From assembly GCA_964486685.1 (NCBI GenBank), contig CAZAOE010000001.1, positions 12,538 to 76,537 on the forward strand: 64,000 nt of DNA, read 5' to 3'. Position 1 is the stretch's first letter. Each line of letters starts with the position of its first letter. The translations under genes and the position numbers were made by a program. The notes under the pieces were generated by a model, which was given only the letters and a program-made list of their open reading frames with translations, searched no databases and had not been told where the DNA came from. Shown here in pieces: positions 4,897 through 50,965 of the stretch. This stretch comes from an uncultured Gammaproteobacteria bacterium (GTDB lineage Bacteria; Patescibacteriota; Patescibacteriia; UBA1558; S5-K13).

Positions 4897-5454
4897 TTAT
4901 TTAAATAACTTACTAATAGTTTTAAATTCATCAGTACCAGCTTTTTTTAATAGTTGGAAAGTAAGCATTTCAGTAGATGAAATAAAAGCTTCGGTTTGTT
5001 CGATTCTTTTGATAGCAATATTTTTATTTTTTAATGTTCGAGATGATATAGCATCAGTGATTAAATGAATTTGGATATTGTTTTCTAAAGCATCTAGAAC
5101 GGTTTGTAATACACAAATATGAGCTTCTATGCCAGCAATAAAGAGGGTATCAATTTTCATATTCTTTATCAAAGTAGTAAATTCATCAGATCCAAAACAA
5201 CTAAAACTAATTTTTTCAATAATTTTTGTGTTTTTAGGTAAAGTGATTTTTTCAGTAGTATGACCTAAGCCCTGGGGATATTGTTCCGTAACAATTAAAG
5301 GGATATTAAGAGTTTCAGAGACTTTGCTGAGAATATTAATATTAGAAATGACTTGTTCAATATTGTCAATTACCGGAATAAAATTTTCCTGAACATCAAT
5401 AATTAAAAAAGCATTTTTATTTTTTTCCAATGAAGGAATTCCTAAATTATTCAT
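4897..5454 (-). CDS. Isochorismatase-family cysteine hydrolase (possible nicotinamidase-like)
   Basis: Isochorismatase/YcaC-like motif IAGIEAHICVLQT and N-terminal IIDVQENF; 185 aa. Confidence 0.75.
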   Translation of the reverse strand: MNNLGIPSLEKNKNAFLIIDVQENFIPVIDNIEQVISNINILSKVSETLNIPLIVTEQYPQGLGHTTEKITLPKNTKIIEKISFSCFGSDEFTTLIKNMKIDTLFIAGIEAHICVLQTVLDALENNIQIHLITDAISSRTLKNKNIAIKRIEQTEAFISSTEMLTFQLLKKAGTDEFKTISKLFK

Positions 5455-5497
5455 ATTATTTTATTTTAATTTTTTTATAATTTTGAAATTATTTTAT

Positions 5498-6052
5498 TTA
5501 ATATTTCAATGTTGATTTAATAATTTTGAATATTGAAACATAATCAATTTTACTAAAATTAGTAGTATCGATTTTGTAGACCTTACTACCAATATTTAAA
5601 GCAGGATATTCTTCTTTTAAGAGTGTCTTTTTAAATTCATTATAATTTAAATGATCAACGTGTCCAGGATGTCTCTCGCTAGATTCGGATCTTTTTTTAA
5701 AACGTTCAAAAAGAATCTCACCTTTAGTTTCACAAATTATTTGGAGTATTTCGAAATTATATTTGTTTTTTAGAGTATTGAATTTTTGATCAGCAAATTT
5801 TGGTTCAAAGTTATTTTCGACAATAAAGGTTTTGTTTGTTTGAAGAAGTAACTCGAGTGTTTGATATAATATTTTATAACTTGCAATACCAAGTTTTTTA
5901 GACCATTCTCGGTCTTTAATTCCTAAAGAATCAAAAAGAGATTCTTTAATATCGTCTTTACTAATCAATGGTAATTTAAATTTAGTAGATATTTTTTGGG
6001 CAAGAGTTGTTTTTCCAGTACAAGGAGCACCAGATATGATAATTAATTGCAT
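5498..6052 (-). CDS. Small P-loop NTPase / kinase-like protein
   Basis: Walker A ISGAPCTGKTT at the N-terminus. Confidence 0.55.
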   Translation of the reverse strand: MQLIIISGAPCTGKTTLAQKISTKFKLPLISKDDIKESLFDSLGIKDREWSKKLGIASYKILYQTLELLLQTNKTFIVENNFEPKFADQKFNTLKNKYNFEILQIICETKGEILFERFKKRSESSERHPGHVDHLNYNEFKKTLLKEEYPALNIGSKVYKIDTTNFSKIDYVSIFKIIKSTLKY

Positions 6053-9124: not shown

Positions 9125-9189
9125 TTTGTGTAAATTTTAAATTTTAAGTTATAAATTTTAAATGAAAGGAAGGATTTGTGTAAATTTTA

Positions 9190-9266
9190 AATGAAAGGAA
9201 ATATTATATTAACCCCCACCATCTCCCCCTTACTAAGGGGGAGGGAGAGGGGGTGAATTTTAAATT
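9190..9266. repeat. 77-bp exact repeat (copy 1), containing a GC-rich palindromic hairpin
   Basis: aatgaaaggaaatattatattaacccccaccatctcccccttactaagggggagggagagggggtgaattttaaatt is identical to 29869-29945; core hairpin CTCCCCCTT act AAGGGGGAG. Confidence 0.7.
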
Positions 9267-9552
9267 AAAAATTGAAATTTGGCATGGATATTTCTCCATT
9301 CTTCATTTTTTCAGCCATTATTTTTTGAATTTTTTTAGTAGCATCATTAAATAATTCCGGAAGTGTATTTTCAATTGTTGAGTTTTCCATATCTTCAGGA
9401 ATTTTTATAGAGAGAACCGTTTGATTGCCATCCATTTTTAAAACAATTCCTTTTTTTTCTACTGCTACATTTTCTTGAGATAAGGCGTTTTGCATGTTTT
9501 TGGCCTGGGTCCTTAAATCTTTAATTTGATTTAGTTTTGAGAACATATTCAT
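9265..9552 (-). CDS. ybaB: Nucleoid-associated protein YbaB/EbfC
   Basis: 95-aa protein, MNMFSKLNQIKDLRTQAKNMQNALSQE..., with YbaB-like composition, located next to recR. Confidence 0.8.
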   Translation of the reverse strand: MNMFSKLNQIKDLRTQAKNMQNALSQENVAVEKKGIVLKMDGNQTVLSIKIPEDMENSTIENTLPELFNDATKKIQKIMAEKMKNGEISMPNFNF

Positions 9553-9811: not shown

Positions 9812-11209
9812 TTATTCTTCGGGTGGTGCAATGTCAGCGTGTTTTTCTAAGCTTTTAAAGCTAACCGTTTCTTCGTCAAAAAATAATTTAATCATGCCCG
9901 TAGGACCATTACGATGTTTGGCTATGTGAATTTCAGCAATGCCCTTTTCTTCTGCGCTTAAATCTTCAAATCTGTAACTTCTATCTGCTGCTTTGCGGTA
10001 AATAAACATAACGACATCTGCGTCTTGTTCTATTGTACCAGATTCTCGTAAATGAGACAGTTTAGGAATAGCGGGTTTGCTCATTTCTACAGCTCGAGAT
10101 AATTGAGATAAAGCAATAATTGGAATATTTAATTCCCGAGCAATATTTTTGAGACCTCTAGTGATTTCAGCTACTTCTTGAACCCGAGATTCTTTATTAC
10201 TATTACTTTCCATTAATTGTAAATAATCAACTATCAATAAAGAAAGGTTATGTTCTAATTTTAAACGGCGGGCCTTGGTTCTAATTTGCATAATATTTAA
10301 ACTGGCTGAGTCATCAATAAATATTTTAGCATCAGCTAAGGTACCCATGGCATTACCAATGCGTGGGAAATCATCATGTTCAGCACTGTCAGAAAGTTTG
10401 CCAGTGCGCATTTTCCATAAAGATACTCCAGCCTCAGAGCAAAGTATTCTATCTACTAATTCTTCTTTGCTCATTTCTAAAGAAAAGAGTCCTACCACTT
10501 CTTTATTTTTAATAGCGGCATGACGGGCTATATCTAAGGCCAAAGTAGTTTTACCTACACTGGGTCGGGAGGCAATAATGATTAAATTAGAATTTTGTAG
10601 GCCAGCTAATTTATTGTCTAAATCTGTATAGCCAGTAGGAATACCTCTTAATTTGCCTTTATTTTTATGAAGTTCGTCAATTCTTTCAAAAGTTTCATTT
10701 AAAATATTGGAAATGGGAATAAAATTTTCTCTGAGGAATTTTTGCGAAATTTGAAAAAGACTTCTTTCAGATTTATCTAAAATATCATCTACGGCCTCTT
10801 TTTCATTATAAGCCATGCCAGTTATTTCGGCAGAGGCCTTGATTAATTTTCTGAGAGTAGATTTTTTTTGTACTATTTCCGCATAATGTTTAACATTGCT
10901 GGCCGTAACTACGGCATTAGTTAAACTGGCTAAATATGATTTTCCACCCACCATTTTTGATTCTTTTCTTTCTTCTAAAAGATTACTAATGGATAAAATA
11001 TCTAAGGGTTCTCTTTTATCATATAAACTTAAACAACATTCAAATATTTTTTGATGGGATTGTTTATAAAAATCCTCAGGATTAATAATATCCGCTATTT
11101 TGTTCATAGCTTCATTGTCAATCAAAATAGAGCCCAAAACATTGGCCTCGGCCTCTAAATTATGAGGGGGTATTTTATCAATAGATTGTGAGTTTTGATT
11201 ATTAACCAT
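9812..11209 (-). CDS. dnaB: Replicative DNA helicase DnaB
   Basis: N-terminal PHNLEAEANVLGSILID, Walker A GKTT, Walker B DYLQLM and the RecA-like fold signature; 465 aa. Confidence 0.95.
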   Translation of the reverse strand: MVNNQNSQSIDKIPPHNLEAEANVLGSILIDNEAMNKIADIINPEDFYKQSHQKIFECCLSLYDKREPLDILSISNLLEERKESKMVGGKSYLASLTNAVVTASNVKHYAEIVQKKSTLRKLIKASAEITGMAYNEKEAVDDILDKSERSLFQISQKFLRENFIPISNILNETFERIDELHKNKGKLRGIPTGYTDLDNKLAGLQNSNLIIIASRPSVGKTTLALDIARHAAIKNKEVVGLFSLEMSKEELVDRILCSEAGVSLWKMRTGKLSDSAEHDDFPRIGNAMGTLADAKIFIDDSASLNIMQIRTKARRLKLEHNLSLLIVDYLQLMESNSNKESRVQEVAEITRGLKNIARELNIPIIALSQLSRAVEMSKPAIPKLSHLRESGTIEQDADVVMFIYRKAADRSYRFEDLSAEEKGIAEIHIAKHRNGPTGMIKLFFDEETVSFKSLEKHADIAPPEE

Positions 11210-11400
11210 AGTATTCCCATTTTAACAGAAAAAATTTATCTTTCAAGTATTTTTATGGACAGTTTATCCACTAAGTATAAACACTTGATTTTTTATAATA
11301 TCTATGTTATATTTTTATGTATAAAAATACAACTATTTGTGTTTTTTTGTTATAATTTAGTAGTCAGCGGTTGGTAGTATTTATGTATTCAAAATGTATT

Positions 11401-11665
11401 AAAAATTAAATATAGTTAATTAAGCGCCGTTAGCTCCCCCCTTCGCCAAAGCTACGGAGGGCAGGCAGTTGGTACCCAACTTCGCTAACAAAGTATATTG
11501 TAATAATTTTATATAGATATTAAAAATTAAATATAGTTAATTAAGCGCCGTTAGCTCCCCCCTTCGCCAAAGCTACGGAGGGCAGGCAGTTGGTACCCAA
11601 CTTCGCTAACAAAGTATATTGTAATAATTTTATATAGATATTAAAAATTAAATATAGTTAATTAA
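11401..11665 (+). repeat. Tandem array of 121-bp units (2.2 copies), each carrying the tRNA-Lys promoter and first 13 nt of the tRNA
   Basis: Units start at 11401, 11522 and 11643. Each has aaaaattaaatatagttaattaaGCGCCGTTAGCTC followed by a 53-nt GC-rich insert (ccccccttcgccaaagctacggagggcaggcagttggtacccaacttcgctaac). The third unit continues into the intact tRNA. Confidence 0.8.
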
Positions 11666-11741
11666 GCGCCGTTAGCTCAGTTGGTAGAGCAGCAGCCTTT
11701 TAAGCTGATGGTCGCAGGTTCGAATCCTGCACGGCGTACCA
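11666..11741 (+). tRNA. tRNA-Lys (anticodon UUU), with encoded CCA
   Basis: GCGCCGT-TA-GCTC-AGTTGGT-AGAGC-A-GCAGC-CTTTTAA-GCTGA-TGGTC-GCAGG-TTCGAAT-CCTGC-ACGGCGT-A-CCA. Cloverleaf with perfect D and T stems; 7-nt anticodon loop C-U-UUU-A-A. Confidence 0.9.
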
Positions 11742-11743
11742 TA

Positions 11744-11815
11744 AACCACTCACTGCGTTCGGGTTTATGGTAAACCATAAATTACTCACTGCGTTCGGGT
11801 TTATGGTAAACCATA
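11744..11815 (+). repeat. Tandem 35-bp repeat (x2) with internal hairpin, directly 3' of the tRNA
   Basis: ccactcactgcgttcgggtttatggtaaaccataa appears twice; tttatggtaaaccataaa is palindromic. Confidence 0.6.
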
Positions 11816-11957
11816 ACACATTTATTTTTGTAATATATTTCTCGATTTTATTTTCTCCACTCCGGTCGAAATTTTTGGCGGGATTTTTTTTATTCCCTTT
11901 TTTAAAATTAAGAGTATAATTAATTTTATTAAAAGTTAATAATTAAAATTTAATTAG

Positions 11958-13241
11958 ATGAATAAAAATTTTTTGTTTATATCCATTACTGGTTTAATAT
12001 CAGATATTGCTTGGATAGTTTCTAAAGAAGGAAATAATGTTAAATTCTATATTGCCGATAAAGAGGACCGAGATATTGGCATGGGCTTTGTGGAAAAAAT
12101 TGATGATTGGAGAGCAGAAGTTGGCTGGGCAGATGTGATTGTTTTTGATGATGTTCTTGGGCATGGTAAATTAGCTCAAGAATTAAGAGGACAGGGTAAA
12201 ATAGTAGTCGGTGGCACAGAATACACGGATTTATTAGAGGATGACCGGACCTTTGGACAAGAAGAATTAAAAAAATATGGCGTTAGTATTATTCCTTATC
12301 AAAATTTTATTTCTTTTGATGAGGCGATTAATTTTGTTAAACAAAATCCTTCTCGTTATGTAATTAAACCCTGTGGCGATGCTCCGAAAAAATTATTATT
12401 TGTCGGAGATGAAGATAACGGCCAGGACATTATTCAGGTTTTAGAGGGCTATAAAACTACTTGGTCAAATAAAATTAAAGTTTTTCAATTACAAAAAAGA
12501 GTGACTGGAGTAGAGGTAGCTGTTGGTGCCTTTTTTAACGGTAATGAATTTTTATATCCAATTAATGTTAATTTTGAAAATAAAAGAATGTTTGCCGGTA
12601 ATATCGGGCCCTCCACTGGAGAGATGGGCACCAGTATGTTTTGGAGTATGCCAAATAAAATTTTTAATGCTACCTTAAAAAAATTAGAAACAAAATTAGC
12701 TGAAGAAAATTTTGTTGGCTATATTGATGTTAATTGTATTGTGAATGGTAATGGTATTTATCCCTTGGAATTTACTTCCCGGTTTGGCTATCCAACTATA
12801 TTTATTCAGCAAGAAGGAATTAATATGCCGATGGGAGAATTTTTTTATCGTATGGCTAATGGAGAAAATTTTACTATTAAAACTAAAAGTGGTTTTCAGG
12901 TTGGAGTAAGAATTTTAATGCCTCCTTATCCTTTTGACGATGAAGAAACTTTTAATACTTATTCTAAAGACGCAGCTATAATTTTTAAAAAGCCAAATTA
13001 TGAGGGGGCGCATATTGAAGATGCAAAAATGATAGATGGTCAGTGGACAGTGGCTGGTAGTGCGGGTGTGGTTTTAACAATAGTAGGCACGGGTCAGACC
13101 ATGAGGCAGGCTCAATCCCAGGTTTATAATCGGATTACTAATATTTTAATTCCCAATATGTATTATCGGACTGATATTGGTGACCGCTGGTATGAAGATA
13201 GCGACCGTTTGCATAATTGGGGTTATTTGCGGGACTTTTAA
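11958..13241 (+). CDS. PurD-like ATP-grasp enzyme (phosphoribosylamine--glycine ligase family)
   Basis: Collinear with PurD: N-domain, then YVIKPCGDAPKK, NKRMFAGNIGPSTGEMG and EFTSRFGYP ATP-grasp motifs. Confidence 0.5.
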   Translation: MNKNFLFISITGLISDIAWIVSKEGNNVKFYIADKEDRDIGMGFVEKIDDWRAEVGWADVIVFDDVLGHGKLAQELRGQGKIVVGGTEYTDLLEDDRTFGQEELKKYGVSIIPYQNFISFDEAINFVKQNPSRYVIKPCGDAPKKLLFVGDEDNGQDIIQVLEGYKTTWSNKIKVFQLQKRVTGVEVAVGAFFNGNEFLYPINVNFENKRMFAGNIGPSTGEMGTSMFWSMPNKIFNATLKKLETKLAEENFVGYIDVNCIVNGNGIYPLEFTSRFGYPTIFIQQEGINMPMGEFFYRMANGENFTIKTKSGFQVGVRILMPPYPFDDEETFNTYSKDAAIIFKKPNYEGAHIEDAKMIDGQWTVAGSAGVVLTIVGTGQTMRQAQSQVYNRITNILIPNMYYRTDIGDRWYEDSDRLHNWGYLRDF

Positions 13242-14216: not shown

Positions 14217-14430
14217 TGTTTTGTTTTAAGGTTTTAATAGTTTAATCATAGCGGATAAATAGATTTAGGTAAAATAGATTTTTTTGTTATAATGAGGTTA
14301 GTTTAGGGTTATCTGCCTACGCCAATACTTCTCCCTGCGCTAAAGCTTCTCCCTGCGCTAAAGCTTCGGGAGACAGGTTGGGAGACAGGTCGGGAGACAG
14401 GAAAGTTAAAAATAAAAAGTTTTTAAGAGT

Positions 14431-29839: not shown

Positions 29840-29868
29840 GAAATAATTTTGAATTACGAATGAAAGGA

Positions 29869-29945
29869 AATATTATATTAACCCCCACCATCTCCCCCTT
29901 ACTAAGGGGGAGGGAGAGGGGGTGAATTTTAAATTTAAAATTAAT
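29869..29945. repeat. 77-bp exact repeat (copy 2) with GC-rich hairpin
   Basis: Identical to 9190-9266; lies 30 nt after rpsU. Confidence 0.7.
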
Positions 29946-29956
29946 AATTCAAAGAA

Positions 29957-30502: not shown

Positions 30503-32188
30503 ATGTTATTAAAAGCAAAAATAAAAAATAGTTTTAACTTTTCTAAAATAACTGTTGTCAGTTTAGTTTTAATGTCAGCGGTTATTTTTTTATTACCCAG
30601 CATTTCTCAAGCCCAAATTTTAGTTCCCCAAGTAGATAATTTAAGTACGGGCAGTATTGAAGAGATAGCTGGGACTGTTATTCAATTGGTTTTGGGCTTA
30701 TTGGGCTTAATTGCTTTAGTTATTGTTTTATATGCCGGTTTTATGTGGATGACTTCTGGAGGAAATGAAGAAAAAATATCTAAGGCCAAAAAAATCTTAA
30801 GTGCTGGAGTAATTGGACTTTTAATTATTTTGGCCTCTTATGCTATCACCAGCTTTATTTTACAAGTAGCTCAAGGAGGAGGTGGCGGTGGTGGTGGACA
30901 CGGAGATTATACGGAAGGATTGGGTGGATTTGGCGGAGGAGCATTAGGCGGAGGGGTAATTGAATATCATTATCCGGCTCGAGATGCTACTAATATTCCG
31001 CGTAATACTTTAATTATGATTAGTTTTAAAGTTAGGGTTGCTACTAGTAGTGTAATAGCAGAATCTTTTACTGATAATCCGGGGCTTGGGCTTTGTAATA
31101 ATTATACAGAAAACAACACTAATGGTAATGAATGTGGAATTTTAAGTAGCGATATAGAGATAATTGATTATGGTTCTGAAAATATTCCCTTGGATCCAGA
31201 AGATGTAGTTGCTGTTTTAACTGCAGATGGAAAAAATATTTTACTTAGGCCCATAGAGTATTTAGGAAACGGAGAAAATTCTACTGATACAATTGTGTAT
31301 TTGGGAGCAGGAATGGTAACTGCTGATGGTAAGGACTTATTTGGCGGTTTAGAAAATGGATATGCTTGGCAATTTGAAGTCAGTACTTTTTTAGATCTTA
31401 CGCCTCCAACTGTTAGTTTTGTCTGGCCAGGGCAAGACCAGATAGTGGCACGTAATGCTATTATTCAAGTTAATTTTTCGGAACCCATAAATATTTTAAG
31501 CGTAGATGGAAATATTATTGTTACAAATTTACCAGATGAAATTTTAGCAGGAGAATTAAAAATTAGTAATCAGTATAAAACAATAGAATTTTTAGCTGCT
31601 GGAGACTGCGGAGGAGCAAGGGTTAATTCCTGCGGTGAAGAAATATTTTGTTTACCAGCTTTGGCAAATATTGAAACTTTAGTTGAAGCCGGAGAAGCCG
31701 ACGATCCTTTAAGTGGAATTAGTGATGCGGCTGGTAATTTATTGGCAGAAGATTATATTTGGGATTTTAATACTACTAATAATGTTTATACTATTTCTCC
31801 AATAATAGAATCTACTGGTCCAGTTAATAATGAAGAAAATGTTCAGCTGAATCCAAATATTTGGGCTTTATTTGATTTAACAGATGTCAATATTTCGCCT
31901 AGTTCTTTAAATACAGATAGTTTTTATATTTATGATGCTGATAGTTGTGTTGATTTAGGTCAAGACGATCCAGATTTAGAAGCTGGGCACAAAGAAAATA
32001 TTGCTGGAGATAATTGTTTCCCAGCTTATTCCGTTTACATGAGCGATGACAATAAGAAGTGTAATATTCAAATATATAATGCCTTAGAAAATAATATTCT
32101 TTATTATCCGCGAATTACTTCTGAAATTAAGGATTCTTATGGAAATTGTTTTAATCCAGCTGAGGGTCCAGGCGGGAGCGAGCGGTAA
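30503..32188 (+). CDS. Surface protein with VirB2/TrbC-like pilin-type N-terminal anchor domain, poly-Gly linker and Ig-like (Big) extracellular domains
   Basis: Signal peptide, then two hydrophobic helices separated by a short charged loop (VIQLVLGLLGLIALVIVLYAGFMWM - TSGGNEEKISKAKKIL - SAGVIGLLIILASYAITSFIL), which is VirB2/TrbC topology. GGGGGGGG linker follows. TPPTVSFVWPGQDQIV...VNFSEPIN is an SbsA/Big_5-like Ig domain. Confidence 0.55.
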   Translation: MLLKAKIKNSFNFSKITVVSLVLMSAVIFLLPSISQAQILVPQVDNLSTGSIEEIAGTVIQLVLGLLGLIALVIVLYAGFMWMTSGGNEEKISKAKKILSAGVIGLLIILASYAITSFILQVAQGGGGGGGGHGDYTEGLGGFGGGALGGGVIEYHYPARDATNIPRNTLIMISFKVRVATSSVIAESFTDNPGLGLCNNYTENNTNGNECGILSSDIEIIDYGSENIPLDPEDVVAVLTADGKNILLRPIEYLGNGENSTDTIVYLGAGMVTADGKDLFGGLENGYAWQFEVSTFLDLTPPTVSFVWPGQDQIVARNAIIQVNFSEPINILSVDGNIIVTNLPDEILAGELKISNQYKTIEFLAAGDCGGARVNSCGEEIFCLPALANIETLVEAGEADDPLSGISDAAGNLLAEDYIWDFNTTNNVYTISPIIESTGPVNNEENVQLNPNIWALFDLTDVNISPSSLNTDSFYIYDADSCVDLGQDDPDLEAGHKENIAGDNCFPAYSVYMSDDNKKCNIQIYNALENNILYYPRITSEIKDSYGNCFNPAEGPGGSER

Positions 32189-32340: not shown

Positions 32341-35300
32341 ATGCTTAAGAAAAGAAAAAATTTATTTTTAATCTTTATACTATTTATAGTAATAGGTTTT
32401 GTATTACCAAATATTTCATCTGCTCAAATTTTAGTTCCACAAGTAGATAATCTTAGTACAGGTAGCATTGAAGAGATAGCTGGGACTGTTATTCAATTGG
32501 TTTTGGGCTTATTGGGCTTAATTGCTTTAGTTATTGTTTTATATGCCGGTTTTATGTGGATGACTTCTGGAGGAAATGAAGAAAAAATATCTAAGGCCAA
32601 AAAAATCTTAAGTGCCGGAGTAATTGGTCTGATTATTATTTTGGCCTCTTATGCTATAACCAGCTTTATTTTACAAGCAGCCCAAGGAGGAGGTGGCGGT
32701 GGAGGCGGTGGAGGTCAAGGATGTACTCCTAATGAATGTACGGGTTGTTATCGGTGTGATCTTGATGGTAATTCTCATTATGACGAGACTTGTCCTACCT
32801 GTGGTTCTGGTGGGGAAACATATAATTTTAGTGTAATTACTAATAGTCCTCAAGGAGAAAATATTTCTTTGTGCAGTTTAATTCAAGTTAAATTTAATAA
32901 TATTGTTGATGAAACTACAGTTAATTCTCAAAATTTTGGTTTATATGACTGTGGAGCCAATTCTTGTGCTGGCAATTTAATCAACAATTTAACGCCAGAT
33001 GGACAGTTTATAATAGAAGAAGATATAATTCAGTTTATTTTAGGAGAGGATTATGAGCAGAAGCATTATTATGCAGTTAATATCATACATGATGGGATTG
33101 CAGATGAAGACGGAGAGGCCTTGTTAGTAGATTATTATTGGGAGTTTAAAACTGGGAATGAAACAGATACAGAGCCACCTACTGTTATTTCAGTATTTCC
33201 TAAAGATGATCAAGAAGATGTTTGTTTAACTTCATATATTACCGCCGAATTTTCAGAAGATATGGATATGCTTTCTTTAAGAAATGCCTCGTCCTTTTAT
33301 TTATATGAAGACATTGACACTCTATCAGATATAGATTTTTTTCATCAGGTTTATAATGACTCCTTAATTTTATATCCTAACTCTAACTATGAAGCAGTTG
33401 AAGATTACTTCCCTTTATTAAATGGCAGTATTATTAAAGATACTTGTGGTAATTATTTAGATGGTGATGGTGATGGCACTCATCAAGATTCAGATATTGA
33501 TAATTATCCTTCAGAAGGTCCTAGTGAAGAATGGAATTTTATTACCGGAGATAATTTATATTGTACGCCAGAAATTACTGGAGTTGAAAATAATCAAACC
33601 TATTATGACGCCACAGAGAATTTAATTATTTCTGGTCATTATTTAGGGAATAATCCAGTTTTAATTTTTGATAATTCCATAGTCGTAAACCAAACAAGTA
33701 ATTTATGTATGGGAAATGAATATTGGTATGATGGCGCTTGTGTTATTTGGGCCTGGACAGAAGAAGAAATAAAAGTAGCTATACCAGTGACTGGGGGCGA
33801 TAATAACGGAGTTAGGGCCGGAGAAAATTTAGTGGAAGTGCAAACTGATGAAGGCAATGTTAGCGCTAATTTTGATTTATTAAGTCCGCGTATTAATGCT
33901 TTATATCCAGACCAAGGTGGAGTTGGACAATTTATCAGTATTTGGGGAATAAATTTTAAAGAAGATGAAAACATTAATTTAAGTGCTTCCGAGGTTTATT
34001 TTCGTTTTAATCAAGATGAATACATAGAAGCAGATTTACCTTGTGGCCAAGATGCCTGGGAAGATGAACAAATTATTATTTCTGCTCCTAATAATTTGAA
34101 TATAAATAATGTTTATGCTGTGCAAATTAAAAAAGTTTATGATGACGGTACAGAGCGCTGGAGTAATTTAGCGGATTTTTATTTTAATGATGAAGAAGCT
34201 GGACCAGGTCTATGCTCTATTGATAAGGATGAGCTTTTTTTTGAAGACGAATTTAATTTAAATGGAATTAAATTAGGGGACGATATCTTTTATAATAGAG
34301 AAGTAATTTTAGGCGATGATTATAGTTCCATACAAGCTGATGTCTTAGAGTGGACCGGAAACGATGGTGATGGACACAATACAGATGTTGAGGCCATAAC
34401 TCCCTTAATGGGTTCGGCTACAGGAGTAGGCGTTAGAGTAATGGTAGAGGAAACAGCAGGTGAACAAAGATTTAGTAATTATTTAAATGTAGAGATATTG
34501 GCAGATGAATCAACAAATTTTTATATAAATTATACTTCTCCAACCTCAACTCCAATAGGGGGCTATGTGACGATTTATGGTTCTGGGTTTGGAAATAGCC
34601 AAGATGATAAGATGGTTAAGTTTAATATAGGCGGAGATGATTGGACAGATGGAGATTTTGATTTTCCAGATGAATGTTCTACGGCTTTTTGGAGTGATGA
34701 ACAAGTAATTGTTAAAGTACCGGAAACATTTAATGGTTTTGGGTTTCCATTTTCTTCAAAAATAAAAATTATAGATTCAGCTAATTATTTAGAAACTAAT
34801 GCAGTAAATTTTGAAGTTAATAATGAAGGACTTGCTCCTTGTATTTGTAGTGTAAACCCTGAATTTGGAACAAAAGAAAATGAAATTGAAATTGCTGGTG
34901 AGTATTTTGAAGATCCCGATGATGTAGATAACTTTTACTTTAACACAATTTTTGATAACAGCGGAAATTTTATATCTGGAGATTATGCGGATTTTATTAT
35001 AGATTCAGATGAGTTAATGTTTGTAACAGTAACATCAACGCAAACTGGTTTAATTTCAGCTCGCAATATTAATGGCTATGGCAATACTTGGAATTTTGAA
35101 TATATTGAAGCAGGAGCAGACATAACAGGTGTTTGGGATTTTTATGGCTGGAATTTTACTACTTGTGCAGATTGTGAAAATCCAAGAGTGAGTAGAAAAA
35201 TATGTAATTCTAATAACGGTATATCTTTTCCTTCGCCAGAACCAGGAAGTACAGATGTACCACAAGACACTAAACAGGTTTATGCGGCTTTTGAATATCC

Positions 35301-50433: not shown

Positions 50434-50965
50434 AATTTTTTGATTATTAATTAAATAAAAAACTATTAGTTATTGGGAAATTAAAAAAGGTTTCCCAAAC
50501 CAGCTGACAAGTCCTTGCGAAAATGCCACTACACCCTTTCGAGCATAGACCTATCCTACAAGTACTGGTTGGAAAACCATTTTTATGTAGGATAGGATTT
50601 TTAACCATACCTTATGAAAACATAGGGGTTAGGTCAATCTAATCGTTATTTTAATATTAACTCAAAAAATTTTAAAAGTAAAATAAATATATGCCCCTTT
50701 TTCCTAACTAGGAGGAGAAGGGGGTTGGTTTACTAAAAGCGAAATTTATGCGAAAATATATATATAATAAGTTTTTAATTTTCAATTTTTTAATTATCAA
50801 TCCTAAAGACGTTAGGCACCTTTCAGATATTAAACGTTTTTCCAAATTTTATTATTTACTTAGGTTGTATAATTTAAAAAAAGATTAGAGTTATAATTAA
50901 GGACTGGGGGACAGAGAGGTTAATTGGTAATTTGAAATTGTAAATTTTTATTTTTAAATTTAGAT

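Follow-up and report, generated by a model that had tools for sequence, protein, structure and literature searches.

The tRNA-Lys locus and its upstream array

The locus centres on an intact tRNA-Lys(UUU) gene with an encoded CCA end, located on the plus strand at 11666–11741 of the window, the whole 64-kb stretch of DNA analysed here. ARAGORN and Rfam (RF00005, 73.2 bits) both recover it, and, as the earlier note on this DNA had claimed, it is the single intact copy behind a tandem array. The note had also placed the locus in the dnaB-upstream region, and dnaB is indeed the divergent neighbour (9812–11209, minus strand). Across the annotated ~19 kb upstream and 5 kb downstream, the neighbours are ribosomal, SecY, DnaB, RecR, GARS-like, CNNM and ATPase genes; no integrase, transposase or element cargo is present in this interval. 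No further tRNAs of the same genome were found in the 10 kb beyond the right end of the window, and at the left end only contigs that overlap the left side of the window were recovered.

The tandem array upstream of tRNA-Lys is confirmed as a real observation. Tandem Repeats Finder reports a 121-bp unit at 11397–11678 with 100% identity, a score of 564 and a copy count of 2.3, where the note had given 2.2. Each unit consists of the first 13 nt of tRNA-Lys, a GC-rich hairpin module and an AT-rich spacer. On the plus strand, the array opens with a partial spacer copy (11397–11423, the last 27 nt of the spacer, identical to 11518–11544 and 11639–11665), followed by the first tRNA-Lys 5′ stub (GCGCCGTTAGCTC, nt 1–13, 11424–11436), the first module (11437–11489; profile E = 3.5e-10, aligned with eight other loci) and the first 55-nt spacer (11490–11544), whose TATAGT hexamer stops 7 nt short of the next stub. 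The second stub (11545–11557), module (11558–11610, also a profile match) and spacer (11611–11665) follow, the last directly abutting the +1 position of tRNA-Lys.

The 53-nt GC-rich insert occurs exactly twice, where shuffles expect 0, each time directly after GCGCCGTTAGCTC. Both stubs are preceded by the same 27 nt as the intact gene, and the tRNA-Lys segment is present three times with 13/13 identity plus 27 identical nucleotides upstream. The DNA between the stub repeats is 108 nt long and has no ORF. The anatomy given in the note, with an AGTTGG-TAC-CCAACT hairpin and GTTAGC/GCTAAC ends, was confirmed in the window module, which also has a CCTTCG/CGGAGG stem and a D-loop mimic, CAGTTGGTA, that is followed by its inverted copy CCAACT. 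A search with a profile of seven family members, one of them the window copy, found no module beyond these two in the 64-kb window. Other GC hairpin repeats lie at 9183–9280, 14312–14405 and 29852–29949. The 12-nt AAAGTATATTGT after the module was considered as a possible remnant of what natively lies upstream of the tRNA in the related allele L006, but it is more likely a low-complexity coincidence because it aligns with the spacer start in the sister species L008.

Upstream of the array, a putative native extended −10 motif, TGTTATAAT, lies at 11348–11356 (plus strand), now ~310 nt from the tRNA gene. Promoter activity of this motif is suggested by its placement in relatives: in L006, an allele without the cassette, the TTTTTTGTTATAAT motif precedes tRNA +1 by 15–16 nt, and in L008 it precedes the stub by the same distance. 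Between this motif and the array, a 40-nt segment containing GTTGGTAG (11357–11396, plus strand) replaces the 15-nt AAAAGTATATATTGT of L006. This segment was rejected as a decayed D-arm, since its 8-nt D-loop match was reached by 45/300 shuffles.

Directly 3′ of the tRNA gene, a second tandem repeat begins at its ACCA end (ACCATAAACC...GGTTTATGGT, 11738–11816, plus strand). Its position agrees with the previous description, while its unit is 36 bp rather than 35 bp (Tandem Repeats Finder, 2.2 copies, 95% matches). The repeat is a duplicated 3′ trailer hairpin typical of the lineage: the module folds with z = -3.37, and the same type, CCA|TAAACCACTC.CT...CGGGTTT(A/G)TGG, follows tRNA-Thr(CGU) in L047 and tRNA-Val in L049. 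Neither the 36-nt trailer nor 11817–12000 could be matched to decayed tRNA-Lys 3′ remnants, as local alignments did not exceed the shuffle level.

The same module at other tRNA genes

A homologous module was found directly after nt 12 of a cognate tRNA 5′ stub in related AT-rich, Patescibacteria-like contigs, in a sample of ~10 loci from one clade that was gathered with a pattern derived from the module itself. Of 17 metagenome matches to this pattern, ten were discarded as chance in GC-rich, mostly coding sequence. The module-bearing loci comprise Lys-UUU (the window and the sister species L008/L040), Lys-CUU (L048/L054), Thr-UGU and Thr-GGU (both L045), Thr-CGU (L047), Ala-CGC and Val-CAC (both L049) and Asn-GUU (L051). 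In these relatives the module always has the same position and orientation, each with its cognate stub, and in most loci a similar AT-rich spacer and then an intact tRNA gene follow. A viral origin was considered and rejected, the module pattern being absent from 2.9 million viral contigs.

The unit as aligned has a left end of TCC(C/T)CCTTCGC, and its right end is the AT-rich spacer. Similar spacers follow the module in five tRNA species (Lys, Thr-UGU, Thr-CGU, Ala and Asn) with the same module-spacer junction; the arms of the Thr, Ala and Asn units are nearly identical, and the window spacer, which can be aligned with its counterparts in the Lys, Thr and Ala units of relatives, has diverged the most. 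The spacers beside the module at Val and Thr-GGU are unrelated, so the two parts do not have to travel as one. Direct repeats of 12–13 nt (tRNA nt 1–12) occur at nine loci, where the inserted DNA of the relatives is 110–190 nt long. The duplicated segment extends upstream by 27 nt in the window and by 34 nt in L047. In the 300 nt that precede the genes at L045 (Thr-UGU), L049 and L051, the cognate 12-mer occurs with no more than one mismatch, and the similarity stops at +1 on the 5′ side. Every target tRNA has the D-arm GCT|CAGTTGG, and Leu, Tyr, Trp, Pro and Phe tRNAs, which have other D-arms, are without the module. The tRNA-Ile of L049 has the GCT|CAGTTGG D-arm, yet also lacks it. An ATPase gene also has a related module in its leader, downstream of a promoter of the same type.

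Empty sites, decay and copy number

Comparison of alleles provides both states of the Lys locus. The empty site in L006 consists of promoter, 15 nt and tRNA, and in the filled site of L008 the same promoter is followed by 16 nt and then by the stub, module, spacer and tRNA. The more distant relative L065 has a compact cluster without stubs. Stubs are mismatched in L051, L045 and L008, and are split after nt 7 by an extra GC-rich insert in L008, L048 and L047; extra palindromes are nested in the stubs of relatives, which accumulate further GC hairpins, and the orthologous module in L063 is AT-rich. Stubs and modules thus decay like non-functional DNA.

As for copy number, which the earlier note had proposed to compare between strains, 0, 1 or 2 cassette copies were found across assemblies. 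The window and the independent assemblies L005 and L002 are in the two-copy state, and L001/L004 has one copy. The path from module through spacer and stub to a second module requires at least two copies, and its presence in these three assemblies means that part of the population carries at least two. As contigs L002, L003, L007 and L056 end inside the array and the true copy number is not fixable from short-read assemblies, this figure is a lower bound.

Origin of the array

The presence of the same module in the same position at ≥8 other tRNA genes indicates that it is probably a small tRNA-targeted insertion element, previously undescribed, and not a local oddity. We consider it slightly more probable than not that the array repeats a miniature cassette without coding capacity, or the scar of one, each 121-bp unit being one copy, and that this cassette is tied to the tRNA 5′ D-arm in this lineage. 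The cassette would comprise the hairpin module and the AT-rich spacer, lying between a displaced 5′ stub (nt 1–12/13) and the complete gene, and would therefore be flanked by direct repeats of the first 12–13 nt of the tRNA, with the native promoter left upstream of the stub. We infer that GCT|CAGTTGG is the specific site at which the cassette as a whole, or at minimum its hairpin module, inserts and so spreads through an enzyme provided in trans, and that duplication of the first 12 nt lets the tRNA gene survive. The resulting 40-bp direct repeats (27 nt of spacer and 13 nt of tRNA) would then allow unequal recombination or slippage in this genome, giving two or more perfect tandem copies and the variation in copy number. 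The array itself is most likely selfish or neutral DNA. No enzyme, terminal inverted repeats or transposition intermediate was found at the examined loci, and transposases do not usually produce a 12-nt duplication whose first base is precisely tRNA +1.

Other partial tRNA duplications among the relatives are not explained by a simple target-site duplication, and a different process may therefore create the stubs: gene replacement, or recombination anchored on the tRNA, may come first, with hairpins invading later. If so, DNA arriving from a relative or an element, with a tRNA copy and its own flank, would recombine at the locus, with the conserved tRNA as the only homology anchor; an illegitimate joint inside a loop of the resident gene would leave its 5′ part upstream, its 3′ part downstream, or both; and GC-rich hairpins would subsequently invade the dead remnants, the array growing by unequal crossing-over. 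Several observations speak for this reading. In L067, the old tRNA-Thr(GGU) is split in the D-loop by a spacer, a new tRNA and a linker, so that its 3′ part (nt 22–76) lies downstream of a new copy with a different anticodon stem. L061 has 35-nt 5′ halves upstream and 41-nt 3′ halves downstream of tRNA-Thr(UGU), which meet in the anticodon loop and are accompanied by complementary linkers (GCCTGCC/GGCAGGC). The stub of L045 matches the functional Thr-UGU gene of L061/L063, while the functional gene of L045 itself has a different acceptor stem. When L006 is compared with the window, identity drops from 100% to 71–86% exactly at tRNA +1, and a stub that starts at +1 would be natural if homology were limited to the tRNA; L006 is, however, possibly a chimeric assembly. 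What replacement leaves unexplained is the recurrence of the module with a similar spacer at nt 12/13 of Lys, Thr, Ala and Asn, as illegitimate joints should vary from locus to locus, and no tRNA-Lys 3′ remnant is detectable downstream in the window. Stubs left by gene replacement rather than by a mobile cassette are rather unlikely.

The suggestion in the earlier note that the array is a scar of recombination at a tRNA attachment site came closer than its small-RNA idea and is partly right, but not as an ordinary integrase att scar: the same module follows nt 12 at ≥8 tRNA genes. Classical scars, left by a plasmid or phage that used a 5′ att site in the tRNA, accreted in tandem and lost its interior, are improbable. 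Direct repeats of a tRNA segment around foreign DNA beside an intact tRNA are the hallmark of such events, tandem units with identical 40-bp repeats resemble accretion, and a tRNA-Thr 5′ fragment in Caldiarchaeum provides a precedent (PMC3293823). The ~10 loci nevertheless have neither integrase nor cargo, the neighbouring genes are housekeeping genes, and the 'element' is merely 110–190 nt long with one module-spacer junction at five tRNA species. If the element carried nt 1–12, that copy would also need re-tailoring for each tRNA, whereas the Thr, Ala and Asn arms are nearly identical.

It is quite improbable that the units are functional, either as small structured RNAs with their own promoters or as a multi-promoter leader tuning tRNA-Lys expression or processing. 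GC-rich islands in a genome of 30% GC often mark structured RNAs, the module sequence is conserved across loci, the folds of longer family members are more stable than those of shuffles (z = -3.0 and -2.6), and each stub, like the tRNA itself, is preceded by a TATAGT hexamer whose end lies 7 nt away; the related module in the ATPase gene leader likewise has the same promoter type upstream. The idea that each unit is a small-RNA gene with its own promoter nevertheless found no support. Promoter-like matches to the consensus numbered 8 against 4.8 ± 2.3 expected, which is not above background, and the distance from hexamer to +1 varies across units. The 66-nt module of the window folds no better than shuffles (z = -0.85), RNAalifold found compensatory changes at 0/19 consensus pairs across nine units, and the only Rfam families matched by the locus and six related loci, whether at the gathering threshold or at E ≤ 10, were tRNA, LOOT and 16S. 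Stubs and modules also decay and accept nested insertions, and the L006 and L065 alleles lack them altogether. The array might still have a side effect on the transcription of tRNA-Lys, either by giving it a longer structured leader or through the additional promoter-like spacers.

A meaningless local slippage or assembly artefact is highly improbable and, for the unit itself, largely refuted: short reads struggle with perfect 121-bp tandem repeats, several contigs stop within the array and a single copy is present in one assembly, but the path through two modules recurs in the window, L005 and L002, and the single-unit architecture is common to other species and other tRNAs, so the unit is neither an artefact nor a private slippage.

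Implications

Mobile DNA classically lands in tRNA genes, and the known cases are large integrase elements or introns inside the gene. What recurs here is a gene-less cassette of ~110–190 nt at one precise nucleotide of many tRNAs, with an intact gene behind the stub. If the cassette is mobile, it would represent a new, minimal parasitism of essential single-copy genes in very small genomes, and would point to a site-specific enzyme not yet described. The arrays account for assembly breaks at the tRNA loci of these genomes and serve as copy-number markers between strains. By moving the native promoter ~300 nt away, they may also alter tRNA expression.

More tentatively, the loci could reflect an undescribed class of miniature elements together with processes that remodel tRNA genes in Patescibacteria-like bacteria. 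In one form, insertion into the D-arm would displace the first 12 nt as a stub, and the gene would be rebuilt behind a new AT-rich spacer. In the other, seen in relatives, a complete tRNA copy with short complementary GC-rich linkers lies inside a loop of the resident one, which gives nested arrays with 5′ pieces upstream and 3′ pieces downstream. If this is true, the element would make itself indispensable by destroying a resident essential gene and supplying the sole working copy, and these loci would be a living model for the origin of split and permuted tRNA genes. The arrays, with the nested tRNA halves of relatives, offer a testable route to the origin of disrupted tRNA genes.

Comparison with known systems

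The architecture of stub and module was not found described in the literature searched, the nearest cases being group I tRNA introns in Patescibacteria, the Caldiarchaeum fragment and organellar GC hairpins. Most bacterial integrative elements use the 3′ part of a tRNA, whereas the stub here is the 5′ end and no integrase is nearby. The likeness to att scars and accretion lies in a tRNA fragment that forms a direct repeat, in foreign DNA before an intact gene and in the possibility of tandem growth, and in the window an identical tRNA segment does lie at both ends of the insert. Neither integrase nor cargo lies between or beside these repeats, and the intervening DNA differs from that of att scars in its length (108 nt in the window, 110–190 nt in relatives), its lack of an ORF and the presence of the same module at many tRNAs. 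In Caldiarchaeum, by comparison, the tRNA-Thr 5′ fragment lies 1.8 kb upstream, with a recombinase-encoding element between (PMC3293823).

Like MITEs, the cassette is small and non-coding and has several related copies. A short direct target repeat may also flank it, although the repeat reaches 27–34 nt further upstream in the window and in L047, and relatives have repeats of 35 and 41 nt. Unlike in MITEs, that repeat is 12–13 nt long and begins at precisely the first nucleotide of the tRNA. The alignment of nine units has no terminal inverted repeats of the MITE type, and no autonomous transposase-encoding partner was found among annotated neighbours in ~0.5 Mb of related sequence.

As a class, group I introns are large ribozymes. 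Those of Patescibacteria interrupt the functional tRNA gene in the anticodon loop (PMC13011429), and the two cases share the broad host group and an element inserted in tRNA genes. The present module differs in its 53-nt size, its position at 12/13 in the D-arm of a dead stub and its lack of an Rfam intron match. The split, permuted and multi-intron tRNA genes of Archaea (reviewed in PMC4033280 and PMC3978253) are similar in that tRNA pieces are followed by GC-rich sequence, that disruption points lie in cloverleaf loops and that the halves in L061 have complementary linkers. In the window and at all related loci, however, an intact, uninterrupted tRNA gene lies directly downstream, and the pieces are therefore not needed to build a tRNA; the host, moreover, is bacterial (DnaB, RecR and YbaB, with a bacterial 16S in L049).

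Finally, the module resembles REP/BIME sequences and the GC-rich hairpins of AT-rich organelle genomes, namely the GC clusters of yeast mitochondria (PMC4478555) and the repetitive hairpin-forming elements of sponges (PMC2800124). All are short GC-rich imperfect palindromes in AT-rich intergenic DNA, often nested or in tandem, that have no coding capacity and whose mobilisation is unexplained or trans-acting. The module is likewise palindromic and extragenic, with two family copies in the 64 kb of the window, and no RAYT (Y1 transposase) was found among its annotated neighbours. In contrast to REP/BIME and organellar hairpins, it has a precise target in the tRNA D-arm, a fixed orientation and a duplication of the first 12 nt of the tRNA, and in contrast to the organellar hairpins it resides in a bacterial chromosome of the Patescibacteria type.

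A tandem cassette array upstream of tRNA-Lys

The repeat structure that an earlier sequence-only note described at tRNA-Lys is present in all its parts, with two small corrections from Tandem Repeats Finder. The 121-bp unit, 100% identical between copies, is repeated 2.3 rather than 2.2 times (11397-11678), and the unit of the repeat 3' of the tRNA is 36 rather than 35 bp (2.2 copies, 95% matches, 11738-11816). Each 121-bp unit consists of tRNA nucleotides 1-13 (GCGCCGTTAGCTC; the stub), the 53-nt GC-rich insert, or module, and a 55-nt AT-rich spacer, and the final 27 nt of spacer, together with the 13-nt stub that follows, make up a 40-bp block found three times in the array. The insert occurs exactly twice in the window, where none would be expected by chance, and the genome has a GC content of ∼30%. 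As the note had stated, the gene is intact only after the last unit, and both ARAGORN and Rfam find one tRNA-Lys(UUU) at the locus (11666-11741). The array is divergent to dnaB (9812-11209), and 11958 is the start of a GARS-like ATP-grasp gene. Between dnaB and the tRNA promoter is a DnaA-box-like TTATCCAC (11264-11271), whose position is kept as TTATACAC in related contigs L006 and L008. Gene content of the window is bacterial (DnaB, RecR, YbaB), and the nearest loci elsewhere come from Patescibacteria-type and similar uncultivated genomes.

The window's species has been recovered in several public assemblies, and alleles were compared across these. Copy number, which the earlier note had suggested comparing between strains, differs among the assemblies: contigs L005 and L002 carry two inserts, as in the window; L001 and L004 carry one and are otherwise 100% identical to it; and L006 has none, with 15 nt separating the promoter motif TTTTTTGTTATAAT from the tRNA. 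Four contigs end within the array (L002, L003, L007, and L056). Because a perfect 121-bp repeat forms a cycle in a k-mer graph, the assemblies do not fix the exact copy number. The path from module through spacer and stub to a further module requires at least two copies, so part of the population carries two or more. The 121-bp unit itself is real, and assembly artefact, as raised in the note, is a very unlikely account of the tandem. Relative to the window, L006 is 100% identical from the first tRNA base (+1) across 5.6 kb downstream and just 71-86% identical upstream, with the switch (L006 1-452 versus window 11081-11665) located exactly at +1. Either L006 recombined naturally with a breakpoint at the tRNA, or its assembly is chimeric; under either origin, its left part shows an empty site in a close relative.

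The trailer repeat (ACCATAAACC...GGTTTATGGT), in which the encoded CCA end pairs with downstream sequence, folds significantly better than shuffled sequences (z = -3.4). Since trailers of the same type follow tRNA-Thr(CGU) in L047 and tRNA-Val in L049, the 36-bp unit is a lineage-typical trailer or terminator-like hairpin that was duplicated in the window. L004 and L006 also have 2.2 trailer units, with one and zero upstream cassettes respectively, indicating that the two arrays vary independently.

A family of stub-plus-hairpin cassettes

A sister species (L008/L040; GARS protein 92% identical, coding DNA ∼80-87%) has the same promoter at its Lys locus. After 16 nt comes a decayed stub in which an extra GC palindrome separates GCGTCGT from TAGCT; a homologous GC-rich module and an AT-rich spacer then lead up to tRNA-Lys. 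A ∼190-nt block of nested GC-rich hairpins (TACCTGCC...TTCGC...GGCAGGCAGGTTGGTA; L040 3655-3840), absent from the window, lies there between dnaB and the tRNA promoter region. Metagenome contigs were scanned once with the conserved hairpin CAGTTGGTNCCCAACTTCGC, which recovered seven AT-rich loci alongside ten unrelated chance matches, and orthologous tRNA clusters were added later. A stub of cognate nucleotides 1-12, module, spacer, and intact tRNA were found at Lys-UUU, Lys-CUU, Thr-UGU, Thr-CGU, Thr-GGU, Ala-CGC, Val-CAC, and Asn-GUU. At these loci the module always starts with TCC(C/T)CCTTCGC immediately past tRNA nucleotide 12 and is oriented as the tRNA, and similarity between stub and gene begins exactly at +1 in L008, L048, L045, L049, and L051. 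All target tRNAs share the D-arm GCT|CAGTTGG. No module was present on these contigs at tRNAs with other D-arms (Leu, Tyr, Trp, Pro, Phe), nor at a tRNA-Ile in L049 that has this D-arm. Spacers are also alignable at Lys, Thr-UGU, Thr-CGU, Ala, and Asn, with AATTAGATTTTAAATA...ATAATATA.AGTTAA within those of the Lys, Thr, and Ala units; at Val and Thr-GGU the module is accompanied by unrelated spacers. A module profile scored the window copies at E = 3.5e-10 and found no copy in the window beyond the two in the array. The window feature is one of a family of stub-plus-hairpin cassettes at tRNA genes that had not been described before. It is a reduced member, with the middle hairpin missing and the most diverged spacer.

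The cassettes resemble unconstrained DNA

The earlier note proposed that each unit carries its own promoter and could be transcribed as a small RNA. Promoter-like hexamers in the array are no commoner than in shuffled sequence, and their distance to +1 differs among units. Shuffled versions fold as well as the 66-nt module itself (z = -0.85), none of 19 consensus pairs is compensatory in an alignment of nine sequences, and Rfam contains no matching family. None of these four lines gives evidence of a selected RNA. Stubs mismatch their own genes in L051, L045, and L008; stub position 7/8 holds extra nested GC palindromes in L048, L008, and L047; and a second module type is inserted in real or mimic D-loops, behind their CAG(TT), in L049, L045, and L061. 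In L063, the orthologous Thr-GGU module has drifted and is now AT-rich, and empty sites occur in L006 and in the compact cluster of L065, with its 22-30-nt spacers. In these respects the cassette parts behave like unconstrained DNA. Such decay, nesting, and absence indicate that the perfect identity of the window units reflects recent amplification as opposed to constraint, and the array most likely consists of selfish or neutral DNA that was multiplied by unequal recombination.

Proposed origin of the array

The first unit may have arisen by a site-specific insertion process that duplicated the first 12 nt of the tRNA, which would explain how the essential gene survives. In favour of such a process are the joint recurring at nucleotides 12/13, the constant orientation, and the near-identity of modules between non-homologous tRNAs. 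Once in place, the first cassette would be flanked by the 40-bp direct repeat, and unequal crossing-over or slippage between these repeats could add or remove whole 121-bp units, a model that fits both the zero-, one-, and two-copy alleles and the 100% identity.

The main rival is gene replacement, followed by hairpin invasion of the remnants, and it is kept because partial duplications in three relatives fit short target duplication less well. In L061 (5669-5924), tRNA-Thr(UGU) has the appearance of a gene nested in its own copies. Upstream lie 2.0 perfect copies of a 51-nt unit, the 5' half with a linker, and downstream 2.8 perfect copies of a 56-nt unit, a linker with the 3' half; the anticodon loop is where the two arrays meet, and GCCTGCC/GGCAGGC in their linkers are complementary. 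In L067 (3925-4345), the D-loop of an old tRNA-Thr(GGU) is interrupted by a 49-nt spacer, then a functional new copy whose anticodon stem differs, then a linker. Nucleotides 22-76, the 3' part of the old gene, follow downstream and are themselves broken up by three GC-rich inserts. The stub of L045 corresponds to the functional Thr-UGU of L061 and L063, while its working gene has another acceptor stem. Breakpoints fall at 7/8, 12/13, 15-17, 20-22, 34-36, and about 55, positions that are all unpaired in the cloverleaf. These cases fit a working tRNA copy placed inside a resident gene, which a tRNA-carrying element or recombination anchored on the conserved tRNA could achieve. Against gene replacement, no 3' remnant of tRNA-Lys is detectable in the window, and it leaves unexplained the module joint recurring at 12/13, which the window locus shares. 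Taken as a set, the relatives suggest active tRNA-gene remodelling in the clade.

For the insertion process, no enzyme was found; the ∼25 kb around the locus contain housekeeping genes. Small ORFs lie in or beside remodelled tRNA clusters of relatives (L049 1232-1492; L067 4417-4779; L063 about 5184-5544; L051 2608-2958). One is an 86-aa GIY-YIG-like protein, judged by eye; that of L067 matches Pfam 23S_rRNA_IVP, and those of L063, apparently interrupted, and L051 resemble it. This GIY-YIG-like protein and the 23S_rRNA_IVP four-helix-bundle proteins are the only recurrent small ORFs inside these clusters, and are possible leads to an enzyme or a passenger.

Other repeats and RNAs in the window

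A P-type ATPase gene has GC-rich tandem hairpin modules (CTTCTCCCTGCGCTAAAG twice, then GGGAGACAGGT three times; 14312-14405) in its 5' leader, directly behind a TTTTTTGTTATAAT promoter motif identical to the one that precedes the tRNA array. Their similarity to the tRNA-linked module, judged by eye, is roughly 75% over some 40 nt; in the sister species (L008 3200-3315) an unrelated and AT-richer hairpin takes their place. A 98-nt dispersed repeat containing the GC palindrome CTCCCCCTTACTAAGGGGGAG (9183-9280 and 29852-29949, 93% identical) has one copy between recR and ybaB. A 300-nt direct repeat (30586-30885 and 32397-32696, ∼1.8 kb apart, 92% identical) lies in a Gly-rich GC-island region, and a LOOT RNA (Rfam RF03000) is on the minus strand at 50506-50635 (72 bits versus a gathering score of 46.4).

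Comparison with known systems

No description of a stub-plus-hairpin arrangement at tRNA genes was found in the literature searched. The loci are not split tRNAs, as an intact gene is always there. Group I introns were recently reported in Patescibacteria tRNAs (PMC13011429), and this identity was rejected for the module. MITEs have inverted termini, which the cassette does not. The note's other suggestion, a recombination scar at a tRNA attachment site, is partly supported. The architecture is similar to the att scars of integrative elements, including one described in Caldiarchaeum, where a fragment from the 5' end of tRNA-Thr lies upstream of an element (PMC3293823); unlike those, the array has no integrase or cargo in the ∼25 kb around it, and its architecture recurs at many tRNAs. 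The module itself is like REP elements and the GC-rich hairpin elements of AT-rich organelle genomes (PMC4478555, PMC2800124), but differs from both in its precise tRNA target and stub. The cassettes are akin to known tRNA-targeted insertions on one side and to GC-rich hairpin repeats on the other.
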